A stretch of 64,000 nucleotides of DNA from Thermoanaerobaculia bacterium (GCA_038244815.1 JBBRTB010000005.1:92936-156935), one strand, 5' to 3'; positions 5,343 to 58,514 are shown, numbered from the stretch's first letter. Made by a program: numbers and translations. The notes: generated from the sequence alone by a model not told the origin.

Positions 5343-5345
5343 ATC

Positions 5346-5527: not shown

Positions 5528-5530
5528 CGC

Positions 5531-20966: not shown

Positions 20967-20981
20967 GTTCAACGGTTGAAC
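20967..20981. promoter_or_regulatory. perfect palindrome GTTCAAC-G-GTTGAAC 8 nt upstream of the MarR-EPS gene; candidate operator
   Basis: Read directly. Located in the 106-bp divergent intergenic region between the wbpA-like and MarR genes. Confidence 0.45.
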
Positions 20982-20988
20982 AGACTCG

Positions 20989-41291: not shown

Positions 41292-42468
41292 CGTCGAGAG
41301 CCGGCGCGTCAGGCCGGCGTTTCTGCCGTTCGCACTTCCCGATGTCGGTGAAGAGGAAATCGCTTCCGTGGTCGAGACTCTGCGATCGGGTTGGCTGACC
41401 ACCGGCGCAAAGGCGAAACGGTTTGAACAGGAGTTCGCGGCGTTCGTCGGTGCGCGTGAGGGAGTTGCCCTCAATTCAGCGACTGCCGCGCTTCATCTGG
41501 CGCTTGACGCGATCGGAATCGGGGAGGGCGACGAGGTCATCGTTCCCACCATGACGTTCGCCGCGACCGCCGAGGTCGTGCACTACTTCAGGGCCAGGCC
41601 CGTTCTGGCCGACTGCGAGGAGGATACGTACAACCTCTCACCGGAGGCATTCGAGCGGGCCATCACCCCGCGCACCAAGGCGGTCATTCCGGTGCACTTC
41701 GCCGGTCAGCCATGCCAGATGGACCGGATCGTCGATATCGCCAAAAGCAATCACATCCGGGTCATCGAAGACGCTGCCCATTCGTTCCCCTCGCATTTTC
41801 ACGGCAAGTCCATCGGCACGATCGGAGACATGACCTGCTTCTCGTTCTATGCGACGAAGACGATCACGACCGGTGAAGGGGGAATGCTGGTCAGCGACAA
41901 TCCTGAGTTCATGGAGCGGGCCCGTGTGATGAGTCTGCACGGGATCAGCAGGGACGCGTGGAAGCGCTACACCGCCGAGGGATCCTGGTATTACGAGATC
42001 CTCTACCCCGGATACAAATACAACATGACCGACATCGCCGCTGCCATCGGTCTGGAACAGCTCAGGAAGGCTGCGCGGTTTCTCGACGTTCGCCGGCGTT
42101 ACGCGGAGATGTACAACGAGGGCTTCGTGGAAACGCCGGGAGTCGTCCGTCCGGCGGTGCGCACCGGATTGGGTCATGCCTGGCATCTCTATGTCATACG
42201 GTTGAATCGGGAGAAGCTGACCATCGATCGCGGTCGTTTCATCGAGGAGCTGAAGGCGCGGAACATCGGCAGCAGCGTTCATTTCATTCCGCTCCATTTG
42301 CACCCGTACTACCGGGAGACGTTTGGCTACGCTCCATCCGACTTCCCCGTGGCCAGCCGGGTTTACGAGGATACGGTCTCGCTCCCGATCTACACGCGGA
42401 TGACGCCGGAGGACGTGCGGTTCGTCATCAGCGCGGTCAACGATATCGCCAGCCGGCACCGCCGATGA
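41281..42468 (+). CDS. DegT/DnrJ/EryC1-family aminotransferase, WbpE-like
   Basis: PLP-dependent sugar aminotransferase signature with [15 protein letters not shown] lysine region. ATG at 41281 (alternative at 41257). Confidence 0.85.
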
Positions 42469-43064
42469 TCAAGCGGATTTTCGACCTGGGAGCTTCAGCT
42501 CTTGGGCTGGTGCTGCTCAGCCCCGTGTTTCTCGTCGTGGCAGTGGCCATCAAACTCGACTCACCAGGGCCGGTCTTCTTCAGGCAGGAGCGGATGGGGC
42601 GGAACTTCCGGCCGTTCCGCATTCTGAAGTTCCGCTCCATGAGCGCCGGGCCGGCCGAAAACGCGCCGCAGATCACCGCGTCGGGCGATCCGCGTGTGAC
42701 GCGCCTAGGCCGTCTGCTCCGCAGGACGAAGGTCGATGAACTGCCGCAACTGGTGAACGTGCTGCGCGGCGACATGAGCCTGGTCGGACCCCGCCCGGAA
42801 GTCAGAAGGTACGTCGAACTGTTCGGCGCGGACTACGATGAGATTCTCAAATACCGGCCCGGGATGACCGACCTGGCGTCGATCCGTTTCCGTGATGAGG
42901 AAGAGTTGCTGGCCGCGGCGAACGACCCCGAAACGGAGTACGTGAGCAGGGTCCTGCCGGAGAAGATCAAGCTCGGCAAGGAGTATGTCCGGCGTGCGAG
43001 TTTCGCCGTGGACATCGAGCTGATCATCAGCACACTACTGAGAATCCTTCCCCGGGCCCGCTGA
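42465..43064 (+). CDS. initiating sugar-phosphate transferase (Bac_transf family, PglC/WbaP C-terminal-domain type)
   Basis: Single N-terminal TM helix, then PGPVFFRQERMGRNFRPFRILKFRSM...DELPQLVNVLRGDMSLVGPRP. Confidence 0.85.
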   Translation: MIKRIFDLGASALGLVLLSPVFLVVAVAIKLDSPGPVFFRQERMGRNFRPFRILKFRSMSAGPAENAPQITASGDPRVTRLGRLLRRTKVDELPQLVNVLRGDMSLVGPRPEVRRYVELFGADYDEILKYRPGMTDLASIRFRDEEELLAAANDPETEYVSRVLPEKIKLGKEYVRRASFAVDIELIISTLLRILPRAR

Positions 43065-43577
43065 TCTTCTCGGAATGCCGCGGTTGTGCTCCTCGTGCAC
43101 CGCGCGGAGAACCGACTGGCGAATGTTGAGATTCGGGATGTCGTTGACGTAGTTGAGGTTGAAGAGGCAGGCTTTCGTCAGATTGCCCATTGCCAGATCG
43201 CTCTGATTCATCTGAAGCTGAACGAGCCCGAGGTTGAGAAAGATCTCCGGCCGCCGGTCATACGCCAGAGCGGCCGTATAGGCGTCCGACGCCTCCTGCA
43301 ACTGCCCGAGGACGCGTTGGTAGGCCGCCAGGGTCATGTACATGTCCGGGTCGGTCGGGCACGTTTGAATGCAGCGCTGCATGTTGGCGATCCCCGCTCT
43401 GGCGCTCCGCACCACTGCAAAGGACGACGGCAGATTGATGAGCGAGAACACGATCTGCTGCCGCTGCTTCTTGATGATTTCACAACGGTATGGGAGCCAG
43501 CTGAATCTGTAGACCGCACAAACGGCGAGTGCGCAGACGAGCACCGCTGCCAGCCACTTAAGCGACCGCATCTTCAT
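43035..43577 (-). CDS. membrane-anchored TPR-like protein, hypothetical
   Basis: N-terminal hydrophobic anchor (WLAAVLVCALAVCAVY) and TPR-like helices (AYQRVLGQLQEASDAYTAALAYD...LNLGLVQLQMNQSD). Confidence 0.5.
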   Translation of the reverse strand: MKMRSLKWLAAVLVCALAVCAVYRFSWLPYRCEIIKKQRQQIVFSLINLPSSFAVVRSARAGIANMQRCIQTCPTDPDMYMTLAAYQRVLGQLQEASDAYTAALAYDRRPEIFLNLGLVQLQMNQSDLAMGNLTKACLFNLNYVNDIPNLNIRQSVLRAVHEEHNRGIPRRSAGPGKDSQ

Positions 43578-44886
43578 CCCACTTGAGGATCACGGCGCAG
43601 AAGAAAGCGATTTCGGCCGTCGCCGCGGCGATGTGCAGGGGAAACGATGACAGCATCAGCGTGAAAAGACCGACGGCCAGCGGAAGAGCGAGCGCTCGTG
43701 CGAAGCCCGCTGTTTCCGTGTCCGGGTGCGCTTTCCTGAGAGACAAGCGGGATACAACGATGAAGGCCGCAAGAAAGATCGCGTAGGCGGGCAGGCCCCC
43801 CTCGGCCAGGATCTGCAGGTGCTCGTTGTGGGTTTCCCCGAAATTCACGACGTTGCGATTGATGAGCCGGGGATGGGTCTTTTCGATCGCGAGCTTTTCA
43901 TCGAAGTACTGAAATGGGAAGCACCCCAACCCGACTCCTGTGATCGGATGGGTGGAGAACATTCGCCAGGCGGCGAGGAATGCCGGAATGCGTCCCGAGA
44001 GCAAGGGATCGAAGTCGCCTCCAAGGACTGACTCGATCTTCCAGCGTGTCGCCGCCCTGCGAGGCGGCGACGACGCGATGAACACCGTTGCAAGCAGCAG
44101 AGCAACGGTCATGGCCGCGATCGTCGTGCGCGGCGCCCGCGGGAGGAACAGGACCAGGAGGCCGGCTCCGAGAGCGATGAGAGCGCCCAGGGTCTCGCTG
44201 GCGACCATGCCGGCAACGATGATCGTCGCCAGCGCCATCGCGGTGAGGCGATGCTTTTTCGACACCAGGGCCAGCGCGGAGGCAGCAAGCGCCGGAGTGA
44301 GCAGGTACATTCCGACGTCATCGGGATTGCCGAGCAATGCCGTCGTCCCGAAGCGGGAGCTATACACGGCGTCGAACTTGATCGGCGTCCAGAGTGTGGT
44401 TCTCTGCGTGATGGCGAGCGTGGCATTGAGTACGGCAGGGATGAATGCGAGATACAGGATGGAGAGCGAACGGCCGGATGCGCCGGTGTAGATCGCGACG
44501 AACACCATCATCGCAACCACGAGATTGAACAGGGAAGCGACACTGAGCGCGCGATTCGTGGACAGCCACGTCGTCACCAGGCACCAGAAGAGAGCGGCAG
44601 CCAGCACGGCCAGGAGCGGCCGCGACCGCCATCGATCCAGCGCACGGCGTCCTCCGAGGATCAGATCGGAGATCGCCAGAGCACACAGCAGGATCCCGGC
44701 CGCTTTGAACAGCAGCTCCTTCGGCAGCCGGAAGCTGTCCTTCGCCTCGAGCGATATTACCAGGGGGACGGAGAGCATCGTGACGGCGATGACGAACCAG
44801 GAAAGGCGTTCGCTGATCGATCGTGAGGGAGCCCGAGTCTCCTCCACGGTTGCCGCGCCGTGTGCGCGCCGCGCGGAGTCGGCCAT
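43558..44886 (-). CDS. O-antigen ligase / polymerase family membrane protein (Wzy_C domain)
   Basis: Multi-TM protein with a large loop containing GVGLGCFPFQY...NEHLQILAEGGLP. The ATG at 44886 overlaps the fcl stop. Confidence 0.7.
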   Translation of the reverse strand: MADSARRAHGAATVEETRAPSRSISERLSWFVIAVTMLSVPLVISLEAKDSFRLPKELLFKAAGILLCALAISDLILGGRRALDRWRSRPLLAVLAAALFWCLVTTWLSTNRALSVASLFNLVVAMMVFVAIYTGASGRSLSILYLAFIPAVLNATLAITQRTTLWTPIKFDAVYSSRFGTTALLGNPDDVGMYLLTPALAASALALVSKKHRLTAMALATIIVAGMVASETLGALIALGAGLLVLFLPRAPRTTIAAMTVALLLATVFIASSPPRRAATRWKIESVLGGDFDPLLSGRIPAFLAAWRMFSTHPITGVGLGCFPFQYFDEKLAIEKTHPRLINRNVVNFGETHNEHLQILAEGGLPAYAIFLAAFIVVSRLSLRKAHPDTETAGFARALALPLAVGLFTLMLSSFPLHIAAATAEIAFFCAVILKWDEDAVA

Positions 44887-45833
44887 CAGCCGCCAACCGG
44901 TTGCGGAAGTACGGCCTCCGCGAGCGCCCATCGGTAGGTCGTCGACAGTCCTTCGCGCAGCAGATGTTTTGGCCGCCAGCCAAGCGAAAACAAGCGCGAG
45001 CTGTCGAGCAATTTTCGCGGCGTGCCGTCGGGTTTGGTGGGGTCCCAGCGGATCGTGCCCCGATAGTCCACGACGTCGCGCATCGTCTCAGCGAGTTCCC
45101 GAATCGTGACCTCCTGACCGGTGCCCACGTTGATCGTCTCTGCGTTTTCATAGACCTGCATCAATAAGTACAGTGCATCAGCCAGGTCGTCGACGTGGAG
45201 GAACTCCCGCCGAGGCGTTCCCGTGCCCCATACCAGGACCTCCGGGGAGTTTGTGGTCTTCGCCTCATGAAAGCGCCGCATCATCCCCGGAATCACATGT
45301 GAGGCCATCGGATCGAAATTGTCGGCAGGTCCGTAGAGATTCGTCGGCATCGCGGAGATGAAGCACCTTCCATATTGCCGGTAATACATTTCGCACAGCT
45401 TGAGGCCGGCGATCTTCGCGATGGCGTAGCCTTCATTCGTCGTTTCGAGCGGACCTGTCAGCAGCGACGATTCCCGGAGCGGTTGGGCAGCGTCGCGAGG
45501 GTAGATGCACGAGCTGCCCAGATAGAGGAGCTTTCTGGTATCGGCCTCGAACGCGCTGTGAATGGTGTTGCTGGCAATGAGCAGGTTCTCGTAGATGAAG
45601 TCCGCCTGGCGGGTTGAGTTCGCGTAGATCCCGCCGACGAGACCAGCCACGATGAACGCGTACTCGACTCCGGCCTGGCGAAAGAAGCGGTGAACCGCGG
45701 CCTGATCGAGAAGATTCAGTTCCTCCCGCGTTTGCACGATCGGCTCGATTCCGGCGGTTCGGAGCCGGCGAACGAGAGCTGAACCGACAAGACCGCGGTG
45801 GCCGGCGACATAAACCCGGCTCGCCGGCGTCAT
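44886..45833 (-). CDS. fcl: GDP-L-fucose synthase (GDP-4-keto-6-deoxymannose 3,5-epimerase/4-reductase)
   Basis: VYVAGHRGLVGSA..., SxxxxxYxxxK region (YAIAKIAG), full-length match. Confidence 0.9.
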   Translation of the reverse strand: MTPASRVYVAGHRGLVGSALVRRLRTAGIEPIVQTREELNLLDQAAVHRFFRQAGVEYAFIVAGLVGGIYANSTRQADFIYENLLIASNTIHSAFEADTRKLLYLGSSCIYPRDAAQPLRESSLLTGPLETTNEGYAIAKIAGLKLCEMYYRQYGRCFISAMPTNLYGPADNFDPMASHVIPGMMRRFHEAKTTNSPEVLVWGTGTPRREFLHVDDLADALYLLMQVYENAETINVGTGQEVTIRELAETMRDVVDYRGTIRWDPTKPDGTPRKLLDSSRLFSLGWRPKHLLREGLSTTYRWALAEAVLPQPVGG

Positions 45834-45838
45834 TGCCG

Positions 45839-46963
45839 TCAAACCGCGCTCCACCGTTTGTCGTTGTCCACGATCCCACCACCGGCGTTGGCCATTGCTC
45901 GCTCCACACGCGCCAACTCGACGTCGTGGTCGATCATCGTCGCCACAAGCTCCGGAAACGATACTCGAGGCTCCCATCCCAGCGTTGTTCGTGCCTTCGT
46001 GGCATCGCCGAGCAGCACGTCGACCTCGGCGGGCCGGAAATAGCGTGGGTCGACTTCGACGTACTCCTTCCAGTCCAGATCGAGTCTGCCGAAGCCGAGA
46101 TCGAGGAACTCTCTCACCGAATGGGTTTCACCGGTGGCCAGAACGTAGTCGCCTGGCTCATCGGCCTGCATCATGAGCCACATGCCTTCGACGTAGTCTC
46201 TCGCGTGACCCCAGTCCCGCCGCGCATCGAGATTGCCGAGGTAGAGCTTTTTCTGCAGACCGTGCTTGATACGACCGGCAGCCCTGGTGATCTTCCGGGA
46301 GACGAATGTCTCGCCACGCCGTTCCGACTCGTGATTGAACAGAATGCCGTTGCAGGCGAAGAGACCGTACGACTCCCGGTAGTTGACGGTGATGTAGTAC
46401 GCGTAGGCCTTGGCGCAGCCATAGGGAGAGCGCGGGTAGAAAGGCGTCGTCTCGCTCTGGGGGATCTCGACTGCCTTGCCGTACAGCTCCGACGACGAAG
46501 CCTGATAGAACTTCGGTTGGATCCCCGCTTCACGGATCGCTTCGAGAAGCCGAACGGTGCCCAGTCCGCTCACTTCTCCGGTGTACTCGGGGATGTCGAA
46601 GCTGACGCGCACGTGGGACTGTGCGCCGAGGTTGTAGATCTCGTCAGGGCGGACTTGTCGGAGGACGGTATTGAGCGAGCTGGAGTCGTTCAGGTCGCCA
46701 TAGAGCAGCCGGAGTCGGGTTCCCTTCTGATGGGGATCCTGATAGAGGTGGTCGATTCGATCCGTGTTGAAGGTCGACGAACGCCGGATGATTCCCCAAA
46801 CCTCGTACCCCTTGTCGAGGAGAAGCTCGGTGAGGAAGGACCCGTCTTGGCCGGTAATGCCGGTGATGAGCGCGCGCTTTCCCTTCGTTTGTTGCGGACC
46901 TGCGGCCACGATTACGCGCCCGCGCCGCTGGTTCGAGGTTGTGAGAGGATCATCGAATGCCAT
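45839..46963 (-). CDS. gmd: GDP-mannose 4,6-dehydratase
   Basis: [33 protein letters not shown]...[21 protein letters not shown] catalytic motif. About 28-aa N-terminal extension if the ATG at 46963 is used. Confidence 0.9.
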
Positions 46964-48891
46964 TCCCCTGAGGCAGCCGGATCGGACGACGTGGCGGTCC
47001 CTCCGGTGGCGGTGTATTCCGGTAGCAGCGACTTCAGAATATCGACGGTCTCTCGTGCGTGGATGCACCGTTCCGCGAAGCGCGTCCACTCCGCGATCTG
47101 CTCCGACGTCGGCTGAGGCGATTCCGTGATCACGATCTGCGGATGTACGGTGGGGTGCGCGGATTCGCCCTTCAATCGAATCTCCTCGAACAGTTTTTCG
47201 CCGGGTCGCAGTCCGGTATAGGTGATCGGAATCTCCTCTTCGTTGTGGTTCGAGAGGCGGATCAGGTCGCGCGCCAGATCGGCGATCCTGATCGGATCTC
47301 CCATGTCGAGCATGAAGATCTGTCCGGCGTCGCCGAGGGTCACTGCCTGCAGGACGAGCGAAATCGCCTCCGATGTGCGGATGAAGTATCGCGTGACGTC
47401 CGGATGGGTAACGGTGATCGGTCCTCCCGCGGCGATCTGTTCCATGAACAGCGGGATCACGCTGCCTGACGATCCGATGACATTACCGAAACGAACAGCG
47501 GTGATCTTCATCCGGGTGGTGCGGGTGAGGTCGAGCAGGAGGATTTCCGCGGCCCGCTTGGTTGCACCCATCACACTCGTCGGATTGATCGCTTTATCGG
47601 TCGAGATGAAGACAAAGCGCTTGACGTCCGCTTCGGCGCAGATTTCACCGAGAACCCTCGTGGCCAGCGCGTTGTTGCGGAGATATTCGGAAGGATTCTC
47701 TTCGCCGAGAGGCACGTGTTTATGGGCCGCGGCGTGAAGAACGATGTTCGGGCGCGCTTCGGTGACCGCCTGCCGCACGATGTCGGCGTCCTGAATGTCC
47801 ACGAGCCTGCAGGAGACCTTCGAGGCCGCCTCTTCCGACTCGCGCACCAGACGCTTGCGAACCTCATAGAGGAGATACTCGGATCGCTCGATGAGCGTCA
47901 GACTCTCGGGCTCGAATGCCAGGATCTGGCTGGCGAGCTCCGATCCGATCGTCCCGCCGGCGCCCGTCAGAAGGACGCGCTTCCCCTGGAACAAGGCCCG
48001 GACCGGATCGCCGGGAAGGTCGATTCTCTTCCTGCGCACGAGGTCGTCCACGTTGACCGGGCGGAGCTGCGACACCTGGACCTTGCCACTGACGAGCTGA
48101 TCGATCCCGGGCATCGTCTTGAAGGTGAGCTCCGCCTCCGACAGATGATGAATGATGTCGCGCACGCGTTTGCCCGAGGCGCTCGGGATTGCAATGAGCG
48201 CCTCCGCGGCATTGGAGGCATCAGCGATTTTACGGATCGCAGAGATCGGGCCGGTGACTTTGATTCCGCGGATGTGCGAGTTCCACTTGGCCCGCTGATC
48301 GTCGATGAATCCGACGACCTTCATCCCCAGCTGGGGACGATGCTCGATCTCGCGGGCCAACGCCTCACCGGCGTCACCGGCGCCGACGATCAGGACCCGC
48401 TTCGGTTCGGCCGTCTCACCATTTGCCGGTCGAAGGTGGTCTCGACCGACGCGGATGGCCACCCGAGTCCCGAACAGGAGCAGCAGCGAGAAGGCCCAGT
48501 CGATCAGCAGGACTCCTCGAGGCGAGTGAACGAACAACTGATTCGATCCAAGGATCGAGCCCGCGTACCACCCGCCGATGAGCGCAACAAGACTCGTGGT
48601 GAGGCCGAACACCAGCCTCACCACGTCCGCGATCCCGACGTAGCGCCACCACCCTCGGTAGAATCCGAAGAGCAGGCCCACGAACAGCTGCACGCTGACG
48701 ACGATCGGGAAACTCGCGGTGAGGGTGTGCAGGTATTCCGGTGGGATATTGAACTCGAACCGCACCAGGTACGCGAAGACGTAGCAGCCCGAAAAGACCA
48801 GTGCGTGGAAGGCAAAGAGCAGCACAACCCGGGCTCCGGCCATGCGGACGAGAAACGACTCGATGAAGGATTCTCTGTTCGCCACTTTCAC
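46912..48891 (-). CDS. membrane-bound polysaccharide biosynthesis protein CapD/WbpM/PglF family (UDP-GlcNAc 4,6-dehydratase type)
   Basis: Four N-terminal TM helices, then two Rossmann domains ([13 protein letters not shown]; [14 protein letters not shown]) and a catalytic YxxxK region. Confidence 0.85.
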
Positions 48892-48992: not shown

Positions 48993-49730
48993 ATGTCTTT
49001 GCACCATCTGAAAAGCCTCAACCGCGACGCGCTCGCCGATTTTCTGGCGGAGAATCTCGCTCATCTGGTCGAGGACGAGGCCCTGGCCGTGCTCGAGAAC
49101 CCCTACGTGACGCCGCGGGTCTGTCAGGCCATCGCCCAGAACCAGCGGCTGTCCGCGTTTTACTCCGTGCGGGTGAAGCTCGTCGGGCACCGCCAGACTC
49201 CACAGGCGCAGGCGGTGCGGCTCGTTCACTACCTCTACTGGCCCGACCTCGTCCGGCTGTCGGTCGACGTGACGGTCTCGGCCCAGGTGCGGCGTGCCAT
49301 CGACACCATCCTGCTGACCCGGGTCGACAAACTCTCGCTCGGGGAACGGATCGCCGCCGCGCGCCGCTGCAGTTCGGCGCTGATCAAGGTCCTCCTCTTC
49401 GATCCCGATCCGAAGGTCTTCGCCTCGCTGCTCAACAACCAGCGGCTGCGCGAGGACGATCTGCTGCTGATCGCCAGCTCACACAACGCGGCCGCGGAGC
49501 AGCTGGCCATGATCGCCGGCGAGAGAAAGTGGGGTAGCCGCTACAGCGTGCGCAAGGCGCTGGTGCTGAATCCGATCACGCCGCGATCGGTGGCGGCCTC
49601 GCAACTCCGCTTTCTCTCACGCCGCGATCTGGTCGGCATCCATGAGAATCCCGCCACCTCCCTCTATCTGAGGCGATGCATCGAACGTCTGCACGAGTCC
49701 ATCCGGACCCTGCAAGGCACGGTAGAATGA
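48993..49730 (+). CDS. helical-repeat (LRV/HEAT-like) hypothetical protein
   Basis: Recurrent about 24-aa helical units (ENPYVTPRVCQAIAQN; LNNQRLREDDLLLIAS; LNPITPRSVAASQLRF). Confidence 0.5.
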   Translation: MSLHHLKSLNRDALADFLAENLAHLVEDEALAVLENPYVTPRVCQAIAQNQRLSAFYSVRVKLVGHRQTPQAQAVRLVHYLYWPDLVRLSVDVTVSAQVRRAIDTILLTRVDKLSLGERIAAARRCSSALIKVLLFDPDPKVFASLLNNQRLREDDLLLIASSHNAAAEQLAMIAGERKWGSRYSVRKALVLNPITPRSVAASQLRFLSRRDLVGIHENPATSLYLRRCIERLHESIRTLQGTVE

Positions 49731-50557
49731 GGTTCCCGATGCCCGAACAGGAGCCCCAGGCGCACTCCGAGCTGGCGTCGTTCGGCGAGGACCTCAGGCG
49801 CGAACGCGAGATCCGCGGCATTTCGCTCAAGGAAATCGCCGACGCGACGAAGATCAGCAAGCGATTTCTCGAAGCGATCGAGCGCAACGACCATCGCACG
49901 CTGCCGGCGCCCGTCTTCACACGCGGTTTCGTCCGCGAATACGCGCGCTACCTCGGCCTGAGCTGCGAGGAGATGGTCAACCGCTACAACTTCGCCGCCG
50001 CGGGCGACGACCGGATCGAGAAGAGCGCGCATCTGGACCGTCTGACGCAGCCTCCGCCGGACATTCCCCGCGAGCCTCCCAGGAAGCGGTCCATCCCGCC
50101 GCCGTACGCACGGATCGACCGCGGCGTGTATCTGCTGATCATCATCGTGGCCGCTCTCGCCGCCGTGGCCTGGTGGGCCGTCGAGCACAAACATCGCTCG
50201 GAGCTCGACAGCCCGCGGGCCGAGGTGACGCGTCCGGCGCCGGTGCGGCACAGGGTCGTGACGCCCCCTCCGCCGGTGGTGGCCGCGCCGCCTCCGCCGA
50301 TGCGCATGGTCATCGAGCTGACCGACGACTGCTATCTCGATCTCGACGTCGACGGTCAGAACGTGCTGAAAGACGACTATCGGCGGGGGATGCGTGATAC
50401 GTTCGAGGCGAAGCAGAGCTTCGATTTCAAGCGTATCGGCAATGCCGCCGGCGTCATCCTCATGATCGATGACAAACAGATTCCGCCACTGGGTGGCGAC
50501 GGTCAGGTGATCAAGAATCGCGTCTTCGACCGTAAGACCCTGGAGAGACTGCCGTGA
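49726..50557 (+). CDS. RodZ-like protein (N-terminal XRE-type HTH, one TM helix, Pro-rich linker, C-terminal DUF4115-like domain)
   Basis: HTH (GEDLRREREIRGISLKEIADATKISKRFLEAIE), TM (VYLLIIIVAALAAVAWWAV), then a PPPPVVAAPPPP linker. Confidence 0.7.
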
Positions 50558-51645
50558 GCACCACGCCCGGAGAATTGACCGCGGCGCAGGTCATCGCGCA
50601 GATCGAGGGCGAGGCCTACGAGCGGGAAGTGCTGCTCACGCTGGCTCGCGGATTCCTGCCCCTGCCGCAGGAAGAACTCATCGCCGTCCTTTCGTATCTG
50701 ACCCAGACCCCTGACGAGGAGATCTCGACGCTGGCGCGAGGCTCGCTCAACGACATCCCCGCGCGGTCGGTTCACGGATTCGCATCGAACGAGAACGCCT
50801 CGCCCGAGTATCTGAAGCTGCTCACGCGTGCCACCAGCGACGCGCACATCCTCGAGGCCCTCATCCGCAACCGCACCCTCACCGATGACGCCGTGGTCGA
50901 GCTGGCGCGCCGGGCTGAGGGAGCGGTGCAGGAAGTCATCGTCATCAATCAGTCGCGCATCCTCCGCTCGCCTGAGATCCTCGACGCCCTTCTGGATAAC
51001 CCGCAGATCACACAGGACACCCGACGCCGGGCCCTGGAGACGCGCGAGGAATTCTTCGAGAAGAAAGCGCGCATCGAAGAGCTGAAGCGCGTTCTCGCGG
51101 AGGAGGACGTGATCGACCAGACCATCCCCGACGATGCCATCGCCGACCTCCTCGAACAGGTGCCGGCCGAGCAGACCAGCTTGTTACCGGCGGTCGGCGA
51201 AGTCTCCATCGAGGGCATGGAGGAAACCAAGAAGAAGTCGATGTGGGCCATCCTGGGCTCCATGAGCGTGTCGGAGAAAGTGCAACTGGCTTACAAGGGC
51301 AACAAGAGCGTCCGCGCCATTCTCGTCCGCGAGCGAAACCGGTTGATCTCCTCCGCCACGATGCGGAATCCCCGCATGACGGACAGCGAGGCCGAACAGA
51401 TCGCCGGCATGCGCGATGTGGGCGAAGATGTGCTGCGCATCATCGGAATGCGCCGTGACTGGATGGCGAAATATCCGGTAGCAATCGCCCTGGCCAAGAA
51501 TCCGAAAGCTCCGATCGGGGTTGTCCTGCCGTTGATCAATCGTTTAAGCTTACGGGACTTGAAGGGGTTGAAAGACGACAAGGGTGTGAGCGAAGCAGTT
51601 CGTTCGAACGCCAGGAAGCTCTACCAGATGCGTCAGAAATCGTGA
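50554..51645 (+). CDS. helical-repeat (HEAT/LRV-like) hypothetical protein
   Basis: Repeated SPE(Y/I)L..LL.NP motifs. Its last 43 codons lie inside the 133-bp direct repeat, copy 1. Confidence 0.5.
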   Translation: MSTTPGELTAAQVIAQIEGEAYEREVLLTLARGFLPLPQEELIAVLSYLTQTPDEEISTLARGSLNDIPARSVHGFASNENASPEYLKLLTRATSDAHILEALIRNRTLTDDAVVELARRAEGAVQEVIVINQSRILRSPEILDALLDNPQITQDTRRRALETREEFFEKKARIEELKRVLAEEDVIDQTIPDDAIADLLEQVPAEQTSLLPAVGEVSIEGMEETKKKSMWAILGSMSVSEKVQLAYKGNKSVRAILVRERNRLISSATMRNPRMTDSEAEQIAGMRDVGEDVLRIIGMRRDWMAKYPVAIALAKNPKAPIGVVLPLINRLSLRDLKGLKDDKGVSEAVRSNARKLYQMRQKS

Positions 51646-51649
51646 TCCC
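51517..51649 (+). repeat. 133-bp direct repeat, copy 1 (3' end of gene 50554..51645 plus 4 nt)
   Basis: Matches 53340..53472 with 5 mismatches (about 96% identity). Confidence 0.9.
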
Positions 51650-51686
51650 TGCCCGTCCTTGCCAGGCTTGACGCCGTGGACCCCGG

Positions 51687-53285
51687 ATGCCATTCTCCGC
51701 CTCGATGCAAAACGAGCCCGTGGAACCTGTCCCAATCGCCGAATCCGAACTCGCGGCGGAACCGGAATTACCGGTGTCTCTCAGTCATCTTGCTCATGTT
51801 CTCGTGAAGTACCGGACGGCGATCATTCTGGCGGTAGGGAGTTGCGTGCTGGCGTATCTGATCGTCGCGCTGGCTCTCTACCTCTTTGCTCCGGCCTTCC
51901 GAGTCACGACGCAGGCTTTCCGTCTCGACTTCGCAGGGGCGGGACAGGGTCATTATCCGAACGGGATGGCTTTCAACATCATTGAAGTCATCAACGAGCC
52001 TGTTCTCGCACACGTCTGGCAGGCAAACCATCTGGGCAACTATCTGGCCTTTGGTGATTTCAGCCGGGCGGTGTACGTCCTGGAGTCGAACCGTGAATAC
52101 GAATTGATTGCCTCCGAATACCAGACAAAGCTGGCCGATCCCAAGCTGTCGGCCGTGGACCGGGAGAGGCTGCAGAAGGAGTTTGCCCTCAGGATCGATA
52201 GCGTGGTCAAGAACGAATACGCAGTGTCGTTCAAGCGCTCGGTGGGGATGCGCTCCATTCCCGAGCCGCTGGCGCGCAAGGTGTTGGTGGATATTCTCGC
52301 CGAATGGGCGGACTTTGCGGTCAACCAGCAGCACGTGGTTTCGTATCAGGTGTCGATTCTGTCGCCGGCGATCCTGAGGCCGAGCCCGACGGAACCGAAC
52401 GGAATCGTTGCAACAATCGAGATTCTGAGACAGAAGGCCAACAGCGTCCTGGACAACCTCGCTGCCATGCGAGGCCTGCCTGGAGCGAATCTGGTCCGGA
52501 CGCCGACGGACCCGATCTCGCTGGAAGAGCTTCGCCTTCGTCTCGACGACATCGTCCGCTTTCAGCTCGAGCCGTTGCTGACCGTGGTTCTGAATTCCTC
52601 ACTGGCAGGCGATCGTGCCAGGGAGGCTGCCTTCCTCGAAAACCAACTGGCCCACGATCAGCGTCGTCTCGACGCCACGGAGCACGAAGCCATCGCGGCA
52701 CGAGACGCCATCACCGCCTACGAGCAGCCCGGCGCCGGCCCGGCCGCGGGCGACCGGTCGACGGCGAGATCATCGAACGATCAGGCCAAAGGATCGGATG
52801 CAGTCGTCCCGCAGTTGAACGACACGTTTCTCGATCGTCTGATCACTCTCAGCGGCAGAAGCGCCGATGTTCAGTACAGGCAAAAGCTCGTCGACGAATA
52901 CCGCAAAGCGGTCCAGGCGGCCATCCCTTTCCAGCAGGCCGTCGCGTACGATACGCAGTTGCTCGAGTCCATGCGGAAACCTGCCGGCAATCCGGTACAC
53001 CTCGATGGCCCCGCCGTTCTCGCCCAATTGGATCAGACACGAACCGAAGTAGGGCAGCTGATCGCCAAAACGAATGAGCTTTATCAGACGATCTCGCGCA
53101 ACATGACCGCCTCCACGCAGCTTTTTACGCTGAGTGGGCCACCGACGACGGGGACGTTACGCGCCGTCAGTCTGTCGCAACTCGCGTTGTACGGGTTACT
53201 TGTCTTCCTCCTCTCGATTCCCGTCGTGATCGCCGCATGTCTTGTCCACAACCGCATTCAGGAGGAAGAAGCAGCCGACCACTAA
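51687..53285 (+). CDS. polysaccharide co-polymerase / chain-length determinant (Wzz-like, PCP topology)
   Basis: TM helix near the N-terminus (IILAVGSCVLAYLIVALALYLF), about 430-aa periplasmic region with predicted coiled-coil segments, and a C-terminal TM helix (LALYGLLVFLLSIPVVIAACLV). Confidence 0.65.
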   Translation: MPFSASMQNEPVEPVPIAESELAAEPELPVSLSHLAHVLVKYRTAIILAVGSCVLAYLIVALALYLFAPAFRVTTQAFRLDFAGAGQGHYPNGMAFNIIEVINEPVLAHVWQANHLGNYLAFGDFSRAVYVLESNREYELIASEYQTKLADPKLSAVDRERLQKEFALRIDSVVKNEYAVSFKRSVGMRSIPEPLARKVLVDILAEWADFAVNQQHVVSYQVSILSPAILRPSPTEPNGIVATIEILRQKANSVLDNLAAMRGLPGANLVRTPTDPISLEELRLRLDDIVRFQLEPLLTVVLNSSLAGDRAREAAFLENQLAHDQRRLDATEHEAIAARDAITAYEQPGAGPAAGDRSTARSSNDQAKGSDAVVPQLNDTFLDRLITLSGRSADVQYRQKLVDEYRKAVQAAIPFQQAVAYDTQLLESMRKPAGNPVHLDGPAVLAQLDQTRTEVGQLIAKTNELYQTISRNMTASTQLFTLSGPPTTGTLRAVSLSQLALYGLLVFLLSIPVVIAACLVHNRIQEEEAADH

Positions 53286-53339
53286 CCAGCCTCCTGTCAA
53301 GACGAGCTCCGCGTGATCGCTAGCCTCGTCCCTCCCATA

Positions 53340-53472
53340 GGGGTTGTCCTGCCGTTGATCAATCGCTTAAGCTTACGGGATTTGAAGGGATTGAAAGACG
53401 ACAAGGGTGTGAGCGAAGCAGTTCGTTCGAACGCCAGGAAGCTCTACCAGACGCGTCAGAAATCCTGATCCC
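53340..53472 (+). repeat. 133-bp direct repeat, copy 2
   Basis: Retains an in-frame 51-codon remnant ORF (GTG 53313..53467). It ends immediately before the ATG of the J-domain gene. Confidence 0.9.
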
Positions 53473-54129
53473 ATGAAGGTTAACTACTACGACGTTCTCG
53501 GCGTTGACCGCTCCGCCACGGAGCAGGCCATTCGCGATAAATTCCGCCAGCTGGCGCGGGAGCACCATCCCGATCGCTACAAAGGCCCCGACAAGGCCGA
53601 GGCGGAAAGGAAGTTCCAGACCCTCACCGAGGCCGTGAACATCTTGACGAATCCGGCCCGTCGCAAGCAGCACGATGTCGAGGTGGGCTCGGGCGGGCCG
53701 AAGGCCACCACCGACCTCACCCAGGTGGCCAAGGTCTATCTGGCCAAGGGAACGAAGGCTTTTCAGGAGGGCAACATCCGCGAGGCCTACGAGAACCTCG
53801 ACATGGCGGTGAAGCACAACCCCAACGACTCCAAGGCTCTCTTCGCGCTGGCCCGGGTGGCCTCTCGCAGCCCGGCCTGGTACCGGCAGGCCGTACAGGC
53901 CATCGAGGCGGCCGTGCAGAAGGAACCGATGAACCCGCAATACCTGAAGGAGGCGGGGTTGATCTGCAGGAAGGCCGGTCTGCCGGCGAAGGCCGAGCGC
54001 TACCTCGAAGAAGCCCTGAAATGGGACAAGGACAACTTCGAGATCCAGAGCGCGCTGGCCGAGTTGAGGCAGGGAAAGGGCGAGACGAAGGATTCCGGCA
54101 AGGGTCACGGTCTCTTCCGGAAGAGCTGA
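53473..54129 (+). CDS. J-domain (DnaJ-like) protein with TPR repeats
   Basis: YYDVLGVDRSATEQAIRDKFRQLAREHHPDR (J domain with HPD), followed by TPR-like helices. Confidence 0.8.
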   Translation: MKVNYYDVLGVDRSATEQAIRDKFRQLAREHHPDRYKGPDKAEAERKFQTLTEAVNILTNPARRKQHDVEVGSGGPKATTDLTQVAKVYLAKGTKAFQEGNIREAYENLDMAVKHNPNDSKALFALARVASRSPAWYRQAVQAIEAAVQKEPMNPQYLKEAGLICRKAGLPAKAERYLEEALKWDKDNFEIQSALAELRQGKGETKDSGKGHGLFRKS

Positions 54130-54133: not shown

Positions 54134-54892
54134 GTGGAAGTGCAAGCACAGGGACTGACTCACGTCGGCCGGCAACGGCAGCACAACGAGGACTCCTTCC
54201 TCGTCGAGAGCGACGCCAGGTTGTTTCTCGTGGCCGACGGCATGGGCGGTCACGCCGCGGGCGAAATCGCGTCGCGCATCGCCGTCGATGCGATCTCCGA
54301 ATTCATTCTGCACACCAAGGAAGACGACGGGACCTGGCCGCACGCGTACGACGAGAATTTCAAACGCTCGACGAACCGGTTGATGGCCGCCGTGCGGATG
54401 GCCAACACCCGCGTCCTCGAAGCCATGCGCAAGGACGCCCGGCTGCGCGGGATGGGCACGACCGTCGTGGCCTGTCTCGCCGACGACGACGTGATGTCCT
54501 TCGCGCACGTCGGAGACTCCCGGGCCTACCTCATCCGCGACAACGCCCTCAACCGCATCACCAACGATCATTCCTGGGTCTTCGAGCAGGTGCAGGCAGG
54601 TATGCTCACCGAGGCGGAGGCGGAGAAGCACCCGCTGCGCAACGTGATCACGCGCGCCCTGGGTGGCGCGCTGCAGGTCACACCGGACGCCTCGGAGATC
54701 AAGACGAAACCCGGCGACGTGTTCCTGCTCTGCTCGGACGGGCTGACTGGCATGGTTCCCGAAGATGAGATCCTGCGAGTGGTGACCGAGAGCCCGTCGC
54801 TCGACGAAGCCTGTCAGAAACTGATCGACACCGCCAACGAGCGCGGCGGCCTCGACAACATTACCGCCATCCTAGTGAAGACCATCTCATGA
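54134..54892 (+). CDS. PP2C-family Ser/Thr protein phosphatase
   Basis: GRQRQHNEDSF...LFLVADGMGGHAAGEIAS...CSDGL motifs. GTG start. Confidence 0.85.
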   Translation: MEVQAQGLTHVGRQRQHNEDSFLVESDARLFLVADGMGGHAAGEIASRIAVDAISEFILHTKEDDGTWPHAYDENFKRSTNRLMAAVRMANTRVLEAMRKDARLRGMGTTVVACLADDDVMSFAHVGDSRAYLIRDNALNRITNDHSWVFEQVQAGMLTEAEAEKHPLRNVITRALGGALQVTPDASEIKTKPGDVFLLCSDGLTGMVPEDEILRVVTESPSLDEACQKLIDTANERGGLDNITAILVKTIS

Positions 54893-55210: not shown

Positions 55211-56845
55211 TTGCATCCTGACCTCGACGAGCTTCGTCCGAAGCTGAAAGAAATCCTCTATGACTGCGCGGTGGACATCCGCGCCACAAAGGCCGCGCTC
55301 TACCTGCTCGACAGCGAGACGAAAAAATTCGAGCTGGCCACCGAATTCGGGTTCCGCTCGGCGGTGCGGCAGTCGGCGAATGCCAACGATCCGATGGTTG
55401 AGAGGTGCTCGCGTGGCCGCTCGCCGTTCTACGTGAACAATCCGGCCACCGACCCGCGTCTGTCCGAGCTGTTGTTCGAGGCGTCGACCGAGCGCATGTT
55501 GGGCGTTCCGCTGTTCTCACGCGGTCAGCTCGTGGGGTTCATCGACATGCGCGACAAAGCGCAGAATCAGCCGTTCGATCAACCCGATCTGGCCAAAGCG
55601 CAGGGCATCGCTGACCGCATCCTGGCGCTCTTCTCGACGAAGAACATCTGGAACCAGCGGTTCATCACCATGTCCGATTCGGAGATGGTTCGCCTGCCTC
55701 AGATTTCCGCGACGCCCGCGGAGTCCGAGGCTCCGTCACCGCGGCCCGGGGTGTCGCTGGCAGAAATGCTCACCGCTTCGCGCACGATCGCGGTGCGTCT
55801 GCGGGATCCGCGACCGCCCGACCCGATCGGATCCTCGGAACTCGCCGCGATCACCGATACGCTTCGGACGATGCTGCTGATGCCGGGAGCAATCGCCGTG
55901 GCGTTTTCAGCGACGGGGAGCGCGGGCGAAATCCAGGAGATCGCCTCGCGTGGAACGATGACCGAGGGCGCCCTCTCGGCCCTGCAGATGAAGCTGCAGA
56001 CCTGGCTCGACAAGCGCGGGGAGTCAGCCGGTCTTCTTCGCACAACCGTGCGCACGCCGCTCGGAGTGACCATGCCGCCGATCGCCGCCGCGCAACTGGA
56101 GAAGGTGTTTTCGGCCGCGGTGAGCGTACCGAATTTCCGCGGGCTGTACGTCACCGTCGCGTTCAGCGGCATGCCGGAGCGCAACACTCACGAGTTGCTG
56201 GGGGCCATGCTCATCCAGTTGCAGGCGAGCATCGAGTCGTCGGCCCTGCGGACCACGCTGCAGGACACACGCATGCGCATCGCCGAGCGTCTCGTCGAGC
56301 CCGAGCACGAGAATTTCCCCGATCTTCGCCGCCACTGCATGAGCGTCCTCGATCTCACCTCCACTTTTGCCAGACAACTCGGTCTCGGCGCTGCGGAGAG
56401 TGAGATCGCGCAACTGACCGCTCTGGTGCACGACTGCGGTATGCGCCTGCTCGATTACGACAGGCTCTACCGTAAGCGCGATTTGAACCATGACGAGCTG
56501 GAGCTGCTCAAAGAGCACGTCACGGTCGGTGCCTCCATCGTCGAGCCGCTCCTGGGACCGGACATCGCCCGGGCCGTCCTCAGTCATCACGAGCGCGTCG
56601 ACGGCGCGGGCTATCCGAACCAGCTTCGCGGGGAGGAGATCCCTCTGGCCTCACGCGTGCTGCAGATCTGCGACGCATACATCACCATCACCGATCCGGC
56701 CACGTATCAGATGCCCGAGACTCCCGACGAAGCCCTGGCGGCGATCCGCCGCGGAGGAGGCGCACAGTTCGACCGCGAGCTGGCCATCCGCTTCGAGGAG
56801 ATGATGCGCGCCGGTGTGCAGTCCACTAAACTCGCTACCCGATGA
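55211..56845 (+). CDS. GAF-domain / HD-GYP-domain signalling protein (putative c-di-GMP phosphodiesterase)
   Basis: N-terminal GAF-like region, then an HD domain (ALVHDCGM...) and the HD-GYP signature (HHERVDGAGYPN). TTG start at 55211; start uncertain. Confidence 0.75.
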   Translation: MHPDLDELRPKLKEILYDCAVDIRATKAALYLLDSETKKFELATEFGFRSAVRQSANANDPMVERCSRGRSPFYVNNPATDPRLSELLFEASTERMLGVPLFSRGQLVGFIDMRDKAQNQPFDQPDLAKAQGIADRILALFSTKNIWNQRFITMSDSEMVRLPQISATPAESEAPSPRPGVSLAEMLTASRTIAVRLRDPRPPDPIGSSELAAITDTLRTMLLMPGAIAVAFSATGSAGEIQEIASRGTMTEGALSALQMKLQTWLDKRGESAGLLRTTVRTPLGVTMPPIAAAQLEKVFSAAVSVPNFRGLYVTVAFSGMPERNTHELLGAMLIQLQASIESSALRTTLQDTRMRIAERLVEPEHENFPDLRRHCMSVLDLTSTFARQLGLGAAESEIAQLTALVHDCGMRLLDYDRLYRKRDLNHDELELLKEHVTVGASIVEPLLGPDIARAVLSHHERVDGAGYPNQLRGEEIPLASRVLQICDAYITITDPATYQMPETPDEALAAIRRGGGAQFDRELAIRFEEMMRAGVQSTKLATR

Positions 56846-57114
56846 AGATCGATCGCGACGAGGCGCGGCGCATCGCCGCACTCGCCCATCTCGAGTTCGA
56901 CGAGGCCGGTCTCGAGCGCATGGCTGTCGAGATGACGAAGATTCTCGGCTACATCGAGATGCTGCCGGATCTCCCGTCCGCACCCTCCCAAGGCGGCTCC
57001 AGCACTCCATTGCGGGAGGATGTCGTGCACCAGTCCGTCGATCGAGACGCCGTGGCGCACAATGCCCCCCGATTCGAGGATGGATTCTTCATCGTGCCGC
57101 CGGTGATCGAGTGA
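56842..57114 (+). CDS. gatC: Asp-tRNA(Asn)/Glu-tRNA(Gln) amidotransferase subunit C
   Basis: MKIDRDEARRIAALAHLEFDEAGLERMAVEMTKILGYIEML, 90 aa. ATGA overlap with the upstream gene. Confidence 0.85.
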   Translation: MKIDRDEARRIAALAHLEFDEAGLERMAVEMTKILGYIEMLPDLPSAPSQGGSSTPLREDVVHQSVDRDAVAHNAPRFEDGFFIVPPVIE

Positions 57115-58514
57115 GCGACGTCCTCGATCTCCCGTTTACGGAGGCGCGCGAGCAGGTGTCGCCGGCCGAGTATCTGGCTGAGTCGCTGCGTGCCATCGAA
57201 CGGCAGAATGCCGCGCTCAACGCGTTTTTGCGTGTCAGCGACTCCCCGCGCGGCGCATTTCCCCTGGCCGTCAAGGACAACATCGTGACCACGGAGATGC
57301 CGACGACCTGCGCATCCCGCATTCTGGAATCGTTCCGGTCGCCGTTCGACGCCACCGTCATTGCCAGGTTGCGCGCGGCCGGCGCAGGCATCGTGGGCAA
57401 GACCAACCTCGACGAGTTCGCCATGGGCTCGTCGACGGAGCACTCTGCGTTCGGTCCGACACGCAATCCGTGGGATACCACCCGCGTGGCCGGCGGCTCC
57501 TCCGGCGGCTCCGCCGCCGCGGTGGCGGCGCGCATGGTCCCGGCGGCCCTCGGATCGGACACGGGCGGCTCGGTGCGACAGCCGGCCGCGCTCTGCGGCG
57601 TCGTCGGCGTCAAGCCGACCTATGGGCGCGTGAGCCGGTACGGCCTCGTGGCGTTCGCCTCGAGCCTCGATCAGATCGGCACATTCACGAAGACGGTGGG
57701 CGAGAGTGCCGAGCTCCTGGGAGTGATCGCCGGCCGCGATCCGTTCGATTCGACCTCGAGCGCGGAGCCGGTCGACGACTACGTCGCCGATCTCGAGCGC
57801 GGAGTGCGCGGCCTGCGCGTCGGCGTGATCTCCGAGGGTCTCGACAAGCTGAGCGCCGAGGTCCGCCGCAACTTCGATGATGCCGCCGGAGTGTTTCGCC
57901 GCGGCGGTGCGGTTGTCGACGACGTCCACGTTCCTTCGATCACGCATTCGATCGCCATCTACTACGTCGTGGCGAACGCCGAGGCCAGTGCGAACCTGGC
58001 CAGGTTCGACGGGATCCGGTACGGAAGACGTGCGGCGGCCGGCGGTCACACCTCGCTTCAGGAGACCTACTTCGCGTCGCGCGGGGAAGGGTTCGGGGCG
58101 GAAGTGAAGCGCAGGATCATGCTCGGCACGTTCGCGCTGTCCTCGGGCTATTACGACGCGTACTACGGACGCGCGCAGCGCGTCCGGCAGAAGCTGCGCG
58201 ACGAGCTCGCCGAGGCATTTCGCACTCACGACGTGCTGCTCACCCCGACCTCACCCGAACCGGCCTTTCGGATCGGCGAGAAGGTCGACGATCCGCTGAC
58301 GATGTACCTCAATGACATCTTCACGGCGCCGGCGAATCTGGCCGGGGTTCCGGCGATGTCGGTTCCGTCCGGGTTCACCGCCGAAGGAATGCCGCTGGGT
58401 TTGCAGATCACCGCTCCGCACTTCGGCGAGCGCGTGATGTTCCGTGCCGGCGCATTCTTCGAGAAGGAAACGGGGTACTGGAAACGCAGGCCTCGGGCCT
58501 CGGACCGGCGATGA
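57111..58514 (+). CDS. gatA: Asp-tRNA(Asn)/Glu-tRNA(Gln) amidotransferase subunit A
   Basis: Amidase signature GGSSGGSAAAVAA...GSDTGGSVRQPAA. GTG start overlapping the gatC stop. Confidence 0.9.
   Translation: MSDVLDLPFTEAREQVSPAEYLAESLRAIERQNAALNAFLRVSDSPRGAFPLAVKDNIVTTEMPTTCASRILESFRSPFDATVIARLRAAGAGIVGKTNLDEFAMGSSTEHSAFGPTRNPWDTTRVAGGSSGGSAAAVAARMVPAALGSDTGGSVRQPAALCGVVGVKPTYGRVSRYGLVAFASSLDQIGTFTKTVGESAELLGVIAGRDPFDSTSSAEPVDDYVADLERGVRGLRVGVISEGLDKLSAEVRRNFDDAAGVFRRGGAVVDDVHVPSITHSIAIYYVVANAEASANLARFDGIRYGRRAAAGGHTSLQETYFASRGEGFGAEVKRRIMLGTFALSSGYYDAYYGRAQRVRQKLRDELAEAFRTHDVLLTPTSPEPAFRIGEKVDDPLTMYLNDIFTAPANLAGVPAMSVPSGFTAEGMPLGLQITAPHFGERVMFRAGAFFEKETGYWKRRPRASDRR

Follow-up and report, generated by a model that had tools for sequence, protein, structure and literature searches.

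Genomic islands and prophages integrate in the 3' ends of genes, and their direct attachment-site (att) repeats rebuild the end of the gene. Insertion sequence (IS) elements and transposons create target-site duplications of about 2-14 nucleotides (nt). Template switching, staggered-break fill-in and homology-facilitated illegitimate recombination also yield insertions with flanking duplications. Here we analysed a 64,000-nt stretch of DNA from a Thermoanaerobaculia bacterium, a soil acidobacterium (GCA_038244815.1 JBBRTB010000005.1:92936-156935; hereafter the window), in which a single gene resembling those of polysaccharide co-polymerases (PCPs) lies between two direct copies of the 3' end of the gene preceding it. 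We refer to this preceding gene as gene A, and to the gene that follows the second copy, which encodes a DnaJ domain and tetratricopeptide repeats (TPR), as the J gene. The account that we favor, with a probability of roughly 60%, is an old insertion of single origin, in which a unit of promoter and PCP gene entered a conserved gene block and the two copies of the gene A tail have been maintained together.

PCP genes affect surface polysaccharide. Proteins of the PCP-1 class (Wzz, WzzE, FepE) have about 320-380 amino acids (aa) with a compact periplasmic domain, and act on O-antigen or enterobacterial common antigen. PCP-2a proteins (Wzc) carry a C-terminal cytoplasmic BY-kinase fused to the PCP part, and bipartite PCP-2 proteins (PCP-2b, EpsV/HfsA-like) are kinase-less and work with a separate BY kinase or pseudokinase that is usually encoded adjacently (PMC12004946).

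The duplicated gene A tail and the segment between its copies

A repeat finder applied to the window returned two direct copies of 141 nt that are 95% identical and lie 1,823 nt apart (Table 1). Base-by-base comparison gave seven mismatches, five within a 133-nt core and two in the 8 nt to the left of it, and the similarity between the copies dropped off sharply at both edges. A preliminary description of the locus had reported direct repeats of 133 bp with five mismatches and abrupt ends, and these were borne out, the repeat now extending to 141 nt. The core of copy 1 consists of the 42 final sense codons of gene A, its stop codon and 4 further nt; the stop and the 4 nt had been correctly described, but the codons had been counted as 43. 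As had also been observed, copy 2 ends directly against the ATG of the J gene. Sub-segments of 26 and 55 nt from the repeat occurred twice each in the window, with none expected in shuffled sequences. The 51-codon open reading frame (ORF) that runs through copy 2 begins, as described earlier, at a GTG at 53313, which lies 27 nt past the PCP stop and in the same frame, whereas its stop needed correction to 53466-53468. This ORF ends 4 nt short of the ATG of the J gene, as gene A does in relatives.

We considered whether the arrangement could be an assembly artefact, that is, a chimeric join of strains or contigs at conserved sequence. The source is a metagenome-assembled genome (MAG), the tail block is conserved among co-occurring species and could confuse assemblers, and 141 nt is the top k-mer of a common assembler, a coincidence that we record as an observation only. 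The copies differ at seven positions, however, and are therefore not an assembler overlap. Furthermore, Logan contig L038 (run SRR19962014, 1,822 bp), a separate assembly, is 100% identical to window positions 51599-53420. The ends of L038 sit exactly 30 nt inside the mismatches that flank the longest perfect block between the copies, as expected for a k=31 unitig. Because L038 matches the window exactly, both inner junctions are independently backed. Homologous junctions were also found in a second sample and lineage, described below. Taken together, these results make an artefact the least probable of the explanations that we weighed.

A dispersed repeat was likewise ruled out. The sequence occurs as two copies in the window and as one copy per locus in 29 relatives, always at the 3' end of gene A. 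The preliminary description had called for a search for other copies; each relative that carries the repeat has it once only. Neither the tail motif nor the insert-specific pattern was matched in the viral collection, and a metagenome scan for the insert-specific 25-nt pattern was also negative. When the 51-aa tail ORF was used as a query, most of the sequences recovered were gene A fragments cut short, and three of these start at the repeat boundary. These three (P0243, P0251 (43 aa) and P0261 (46 aa)) come from JGI contigs of 2122, 2877 and 1041 nt, apparently at contig edges, and begin with a literal Val at most three codons from the left boundary of the repeat (VGVVLPL... / VPIGVVLPL...). 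The assembly breaks there may reflect a tail duplication at those loci or a block common to co-occurring strains.

To establish the ancestral state we drew on two sets of relatives. A genome scan with gene A gave 33 loci, in 28 of which gene A and the J gene were both visible (L001-L010 and L012-L029; gene A 43-75% identical), and the protein collection contributed the nearest three homologues of gene A (L042-L044; 86, 83 and 82% aa identity). In 31 of these 31 relatives with both genes visible, gene A was followed directly by the J gene, with one tail copy and no gene between. In the 28 genome-scan loci, a PP2C phosphatase gene came next after the J gene. The distance from the gene A stop to the J ATG ranged from -4 to +15 nt and was 6 nt in L042-L044. 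Copy 2 in the window keeps the ancestral junction AAATCCTGATCCC-ATGAAGGT, that is AAATCCTGA-TCCC-ATGAAGGT, as in L001-L003 and L042-L044. Since the relatives have a single tail and directly adjacent genes, the 1.8-kb segment in the window is an insertion, in agreement with the preliminary description, which had proposed an insertion at this site. The net gain is 1,823 nt, made up of 1,682 nt of new DNA and a 141-nt target duplication.

The insert holds one credible ORF, the PCP gene. Neither a Pfam/NCBIfam search nor an ORF scan found a recombinase or transposase family in the insert or its neighbours, and no terminal inverted repeats were found at the insert ends. The 54-nt 3' spacer was examined as a possible remnant of the convergent NusG-like neighbour of native PCP genes, and this idea was rejected when its minus-strand translations gave no similarity.

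A second lineage and the history of the insertion

The closest homologue of the inserted PCP (P0002, 67% aa identity) is encoded on Logan contig L040, from a run (SRR33230372) other than that of L038. L040 starts with 30 nt from the end of a gene A tail (...CAGAAATCGTGATCCC) fused to TTGACGCGG... (TTGACG...), and it ends with ...AATC followed directly by GCCCCCGTGGGGGTTGTCCTGCCGTTGATC, the beginning of a tail copy. On the right, L040 and the window have the boundary within one and the same Ala codon, and on the left the junction lies at the same TCCC in both. The last sense codon TCG was found only in copy 1 and in the insert-proximal copy of L040; aligned insertion-free tails (L001-L004, L008, L017, L042-L044) have other last codons, mostly TCC. 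Window and L040 also have in common the derived promoter variant GGATGCCATYCT, the native form being GGCTGACATYCT. The shared junctions, TCG codon and promoter variant therefore point to one origin. The 18-nt stretch at 51650-51667 is present in the window insert and absent from L040. The preliminary description had regarded an identical arrangement in relatives as incompatible with its reading, and L040 has the same tail-PCP-tail junctions.

We next consider the age of the insertion. Between the PCP genes of the window and L040, nonsynonymous divergence (dN) was 0.23 and synonymous divergence (dS) 1.53, with a third-position identity of 0.465, compared with 0.39-0.42 for saturated native pairs. 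For gene A, the window and the insertion-free L042 and L043 differed by a dS of 0.60-0.66, with a third-position identity of 0.65-0.66; at the level of L044 and L001, the gene A dS was 0.92-0.93 and the third-position identity 0.56. The 60 visible tail nt of L040 showed 5 differences from L001, 5 from L044, 7 from the window and 9 from L042. None of 81 other PCP loci (80 from JGI and L125) had tail, gene A or J sequence alongside. The insertion appears to be old and patchily distributed: two diverged lineages have it, and relatives that are apparently nearer to each do not. Recombination between the direct repeats, with their 61-nt perfect core, would allow a precise deletion of RecA type that restores a scarless junction of gene A and the J gene. 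Such loss would be cheap and repeatable, and is the simplest explanation for the patchy distribution.

Lateral spread is another way to read the presence of the insertion in these two lineages and its absence from nearer relatives. In this scenario the element would be an integrase-free mobile cassette, in which homologous recombination between the tail copies excises a 1.8-kb circle of the PCP gene and one tail, which a relative takes up and re-integrates by a single Campbell-type crossover in the well-conserved gene A tail, so that tail-PCP-tail is formed anew. The L040 tail pieces resemble L001 and L044 and not the window, as host-like tails in each lineage would; the invariant first 26+ nt of the repeat would supply a universal homology target; the TCG codon moves with the left junction of the insert in both lineages; and both Logan unitigs span almost exactly one repeat period, as a circle would give. 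If a cassette had moved in this way, however, each copy should consist of a donor-like and a host-like half, whereas both window copies share window-specific derived states. The PCP alleles are near synonymous saturation, so that the transfer would have to be ancient or its donors unsampled, and the initial adjacency of PCP gene and tail is left unexplained. Only two lineages are known, with none among the 80 JGI PCP loci. We consider lateral spread unlikely, and are still more doubtful of a version in which the tail-PCP-tail unit is a RecA-driven cassette that uses the near-invariant, rare-codon tail block as a universal landing pad in other Thermoanaerobaculia, with copy 2 kept as a cis element or coupling ORF for the J gene. 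The polarity of the mismatches did not discriminate between Campbell-type integration and divergence in situ, with about three derived changes per copy.

Comparison of the copies with orthologous tails bears on whether the insertion could instead be recent. Over the 141 nt, copy 1 and copy 2 differ at 7 positions, and each differs from L042 at 12. Differences of copy 2 and copy 1, respectively, numbered 14 and 16 to L043, 25 and 27 to L044, 28 and 30 to L001, and 31 and 35 to L003; copy 2 was never further than copy 1 from the orthologous tails compared. When the changes were polarised against L042-L044, about three could be assigned to each copy and one was ambiguous. Both copies also carry states that only this genome has, namely AGC where ACC is otherwise universal, AGG, and CGT. 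Read in the frame of gene A, six of their seven differences fall at third positions and are synonymous. A recent, private insertion whose second copy is a neutral scar not yet decayed would account for the 95% identity of the copies and for the window-specific derived states that they have in common, as if the duplication post-dated the split from L042, and for the lack of the insert in the genomes of all sampled relatives. It is at odds with L040, which has the same junctions and a PCP protein that is 33% diverged, at a dS of about 1.5. The third-position bias of the mismatches also speaks against neutral decay, as does the distance of copy 2 from orthologues, which does not exceed that of the functional copy. 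We judge a recent insertion improbable, and the gene-fragment scar suggested in the preliminary description did not survive the comparison, since copy 2 has diverged no faster than the functional copy.

Were the age implied by L040 correct, neutral change would have left copy 2 unrecognisable by now, so that gene conversion, selection or both would be needed. We infer that the copies have been kept about 95% alike by gene conversion across the 61-nt core, by constraint on copy 2, or by the two together. The 61-nt identical block is the likeliest substrate for homologous recombination or gene conversion.

The first 60-70 nt or so of the tail (GGGGTTGTCCTGCCGTTGATCAATCGNTTAACCTTNCGNGATTTGAARGG; 51517-51585 and 53340-53408) are near-invariant DNA in about 30 species. 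This comparison covered L001-L029 and L042-L044, whose gene A proteins are just 45-85% identical. In many species the repeat begins with the same 26+ nt. The block contains rare codons (two TTA, several TTG, GTT and CGT) in a genome of 63% G+C, and its mean relative codon frequency is 0.28-0.35, compared with 0.4-0.6 in the rest of gene A. No sigma-70 promoter or terminator beyond chance was found in the repeat and spacers. An RNA element in the tail was tried and rejected: there was no Rfam match at E<=1 and no consensus structure or covariation, and fold z-scores were -0.06 to -1.4. In many relatives (L006, L009, L014, L016 and L017; e.g. L017:6939-6956) the conserved block holds an imperfect palindrome, GTTGATC-AATC-GATTAAC, with 14 of 18 positions self-complementary, and the window has a weaker variant (GTTGATCAATCGTTTAAG) at 51531-51548. 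The palindrome could be an operator for a dimeric helix-turn-helix (HTH) protein, for example the product of the RodZ-like gene upstream.

Two candidates for a constraint on copy 2 can be named, the nucleotide-level conservation of this block and a coupling of J-gene translation to an upstream ORF. The tail ORF is kept open in the window, and in L040 a tail-frame GTG lies at the PCP stop. A nearby start codon could easily arise by chance, so coupling is put forward here as a hypothesis. At L040:1671-1722 the PCP stop overlaps this GTG (GTGA), and a GC hairpin (GGGGGC-N8-GCCCCC) spans the boundary of insert and tail. The window differs in that the PCP ORF stops 27 nt earlier, at a TAA, and shares its frame with the tail ORF.

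The events under the old-insertion account could be reconstructed as follows. A compact unit, consisting of a promoter and a kinase-less PCP-2/Wzc-like gene, would have moved from a Wzy-type locus to the junction of gene A and the J gene. The event would have duplicated the last 141-142 nt of the target, leaving the 3' end of gene A intact as copy 1 and the sequence upstream of the J gene native as copy 2. We favor a one-off illegitimate event as the source of this outcome, either by fill-in of a staggered break or by a template switch to the polysaccharide locus with a return 141 nt upstream. Fill-in or template switching would be the presumed origin of the duplication, just as recurrent loss and a function of copy 2 are presumed. 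The junctions showed no informative microhomology, and no donor remnant was identified.

The preliminary description had also raised the possibility of a switch, by excision or inversion, in the control of polysaccharide chain length. A programmed switch of this kind would toggle chain length by regulated excision or inversion (phase variation). Direct repeats with a 61-nt perfect core are able to recombine, and PCP genes influence surface polysaccharide (for PCP roles see PMC12004946). Excision is accordingly possible in mechanistic terms, and to that extent the suggestion stands. Inversion, however, is impossible between direct repeats. Neither a recombinase gene in or beside the insert nor inverted repeats were found, and an excised circle with no replication or re-integration machinery would amount to a one-way loss. 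We regard a programmed switch as highly improbable.

Several points weigh against an old insertion with co-maintained copies. The arrangement is seen in one other lineage only, L040, a 1.7-kb unitig that shows 30 nt of each tail, and the placement of the L040 host relative to L042-L044 rests on dS/dN scaling and 60 nt of tail. The PCP gene may have evolved faster after its relocation, in which case the insertion would be younger and its distribution less patchy. The third-position excess (six of seven) and the equal branch lengths are suggestive but not significant (P about 0.05-0.13, rough binomial). Gene conversion is inferred and not observed, and the mechanism behind the 141-nt target duplication is likewise presumptive. 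Finally, a k=31 graph by itself is also compatible with a chromosome in which gene A adjoins the J gene plus a separate 1.8-kb circle, and the window contig rules out such a circle only if reads or longer k-mers cross the 61-nt block.

The inserted gene, its promoter motif and the surrounding genes

The PCP gene belongs to a family of about 170 homologues of uniform length. The conserved Met of the family is residue 7 of the mechanically called ORF, and for that reason we prefer ATG 51705, with leaderless-type spacing, as the probable true start. No Pfam match was found at E<=10, including Wzz (PF02706) and GNVR (PF13807), nor any NCBIfam match at E<=0.01, and a profile of 41 homologues matched no PDB sequence. 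Numbered from Met 51705, hydropathy peaks lie at about 36-60 and 490-515, and helices at 43-67 and 496-531 in the AlphaFold model, which has a pLDDT of 81. Two transmembrane (TM) helices thus flank a mostly helical periplasmic domain of about 430 aa, and about 15 cytoplasmic residues follow TM2 (...CLVHNRIQEEEAADH). Significant Foldseek matches were solely to co-polymerases (Wzc, WzzE, Wzz); the best structural matches were Wzc, WzzE, FepE and KpsE, with Wzc and not Wzz at the top. The protein has no BY-kinase domain and matched no P-loop or kinase family. Fold and homologue context, and not sequence models, support a polysaccharide co-polymerase, as the label Wzz-like in the preliminary description implied. 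That label did not hold as regards sequence models or PCP-1 size, the protein being nearer Wzc/PCP-2.

Upstream of the gene, the motif TTGACG-N13/14-GCTGnCATYCT, 8 nt before the conserved ATGCAR start, was present in 49 of 77 native homologues, compared with 0.13% of shuffled upstream regions. In the window the motif is intact with the same 8-nt spacing as at native loci; a generic sigma-70 scan did not call it. This putative promoter is native to the PCP family and came in with the insert. Its conserved spacing in L034-L103 suggests leaderless transcripts, and suggests that the annotated start at 51687 is wrong.

Homologues of the PCP gene are found beside Wzy_C, GDP-mannose dehydratase (GMD) and epimerases, UGDH, sugar-nucleotide enzymes, a MarR-like regulator and a NusG paralogue (L034, L036, L039, L041). 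The window has its own Wzy_C/GMD/glycosyltransferase locus at 38330-47089, which lies 4.6-13 kb upstream of the PCP gene and does not adjoin it; the MarR-like and UGDH genes lie some 20 kb from this main locus. Where native loci have the PCP gene, downstream of the Wzy_C partner gene, the window has convergent genes that overlap at 43035-43064 and close the slot. No PCP remnant was found in this slot, and the displaced copy is the sole PCP in the window. At native loci (L039:871-2055 and 3817-5972; L036:9726-12067) the PCP gene often stands at the edge of a flexible region that includes an IS481-like transposase, HEPN/nucleotidyltransferase genes, and ParE/Phd or PIN/CopG toxin-antitoxin pairs. 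Such neighbourhoods would fit frequent rearrangement there.

The insertion interrupts a conserved block of RodZ-like gene, gene A, J gene and PP2C gene, of which the RodZ-like gene is the first visible member; its synteny extends over L001-L033 and L042-L044. The named relatives are Thermoanaerobaculia/Acidobacteriota MAGs throughout. Gene A has more than 1,200 homologues, all from Thermoanaerobaculia/Acidobacteriota where named, and no Pfam or NCBIfam match. Its AlphaFold model (pLDDT 80) consists of helical repeats across two domains with weak ARM/HEAT fold matches (E about 1e-3), so that the earlier HEAT-like label was a fair one for this all-alpha solenoid. No record was found of proteins identical to those of gene A and the J gene, which would have pointed to other assemblies of the same species. 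Start and stop codons within the block overlap or nearly so, the RodZ-like stop overlapping the GTG start of gene A as GTGA, and such an arrangement, typical of translational coupling, would be consistent with coupling here. The 20 nt that precede the J gene show no run resembling a Shine-Dalgarno sequence.

Two further observations concern other genes in the window. A 245-aa gene at 48993-49730, two positions upstream of gene A, is distantly paralogous to gene A over the C-terminal half of the latter; it gave 22-30% identity in tblastn at many loci, with synteny kept for both genes. At 13890-14566, an epimerase/dehydratase homologue is present in two consecutive pieces (residues 1-105 at 13893-14207 and residues 104-225 at 14198-14566) whose boundaries imply different reading frames, which suggests a frameshift or a truncated gene.

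Table 1. Features of the window, with positions counted from its first nucleotide.
Feature	Position	Strand	Remarks
Repeat copy 1	51509..51649 (core 51517-51649)	+	Functional 3' end of gene A, stop and 4 nt (TCCC)
Repeat copy 2	53332..53472	+	Displaced gene A tail; stop-TCCC-ATG junction with the J gene retained
Longest perfect block between copies	51568..51628 (61 nt; partner 53391-53451)	+	Ends of L038 lie 30 nt inside the flanking mismatches
Insert-specific DNA	51650..53331 (1,682 nt)	+	18-nt stretch, promoter-like motif, PCP gene, 46-nt 3' spacer
Promoter-like motif	51668..51696	+	TTGACG-N17-CATTCT, upstream TG, 8 nt before ATG 51705
PCP-like gene	51705..53285	+	526 aa from the conserved Met; mechanical ORF start 51687, 532 aa
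51-codon ORF through copy 2	53313..53468	+	GTG to TGA (53466-53468); GTG 27 nt past the PCP stop, same frame
MarR-like and UGDH genes	19.5-21.3 kb (19551-21339)		About 20 kb from the main polysaccharide locus
GT4, Epimerase_2 (UDP-GlcNAc 2-epimerase), hexapeptide transferase, DegT, Bac_transf	38330-43064	+	Polysaccharide locus
Unnamed gene, Wzy_C, epimerase, GMD	43035-47089	-	Polysaccharide locus
Two hypothetical genes	47716-49730		Gene calls
RodZ-like gene (HTH_25/RodZ_C)	49676..50557	+	Pfam HTH_25 3e-23, RodZ_C 4e-7
Gene A (363 aa)	50554..51645	+	Source of the duplicated tail; all-alpha ARM/HEAT-like solenoid
J gene (DnaJ domain and TPR)	53473..54129	+	Pfam DnaJ 1e-20, TPR families
Stp1-type PP2C Ser/Thr phosphatase	54134..54892	+	NCBIfam NF033484 2.6e-80, above cut-off; last gene of the conserved block
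GAF-HD gene	55211-56845		Pfam
GatA	56814-58514		NCBIfam

Comparison with described insertions and co-polymerases

The locus is a clean illustration, from nature, that a tightly coupled operon can take up a gene without damage. Since the target was duplicated, both the frame of the upstream gene and the native upstream sequence of the downstream gene were kept. Such a duplication can persist and co-evolve over the long term, and it gives the insertion a built-in route of precise loss. The analysis also flags a widespread Thermoanaerobaculia co-polymerase family, of more than 170 members, that current sequence models miss and that has a leaderless-type promoter motif. The value of these results lies in case studies of genome evolution and in the annotation of acidobacterial polysaccharide loci, and current understanding is not overturned. 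We regard the locus as an ordinary evolutionary rearrangement of a known kind and not a genetic switch; its unexplained sides are the nucleotide-conserved tail block and the patchy distribution.

Islands and prophages at gene 3' ends show the same direct repeats derived from the 3' end, the same intact target gene and the same possibility of precise excision. Their att site, however, is an element-borne look-alike with a short identical core, whereas here one 1.7-kb cellular gene is flanked by a full 141-nt duplication of host sequence, with no integrase or mobility gene and with no viral or plasmid association found. IS elements and transposons also bracket their insert with a direct target duplication. 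At 141 nt the duplication in the window is far too long and is therefore not a transposon target duplication; transposase and terminal inverted repeats are also lacking. Insertions that arise by template switching, staggered breaks or homology-facilitated illegitimate recombination have in common with this locus a one-off ectopic capture, a target duplication and the lack of a dedicated enzyme. They differ in that no informative junction microhomology or donor locus was found here, and the native PCP slot is absent from the polysaccharide locus of this genome.

As regards the protein, the inserted gene lies in a RodZ/DnaJ/PP2C block and not in the polysaccharide locus, and sequence models do not assign it to the PCP superfamily. 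It nevertheless has the two TM helices and large helical periplasmic region described for the superfamily (PMC12004946), and the fold of an alpha/beta base with a long helical hairpin. At 526-532 aa, of which about 430 make up the periplasmic region, it exceeds PCP-1 proteins (Wzz, WzzE, FepE) in size. Target lengths of 308-332 among its structural matches are consistent with the size range of that class. It differs from PCP-2a (Wzc) in the lack of a fused BY-kinase. Its neighbours are gene A and the DnaJ/TPR gene, with no adjoining kinase or pseudokinase gene as in bipartite PCP-2 systems (EpsV/HfsA, CapA), whose kinase-less architecture it shares. In its predicted structure the inserted gene product thus resembles a divergent, kinase-less PCP-2-like family, nearer to Wzc/PCP-2 than to Wzz proper.

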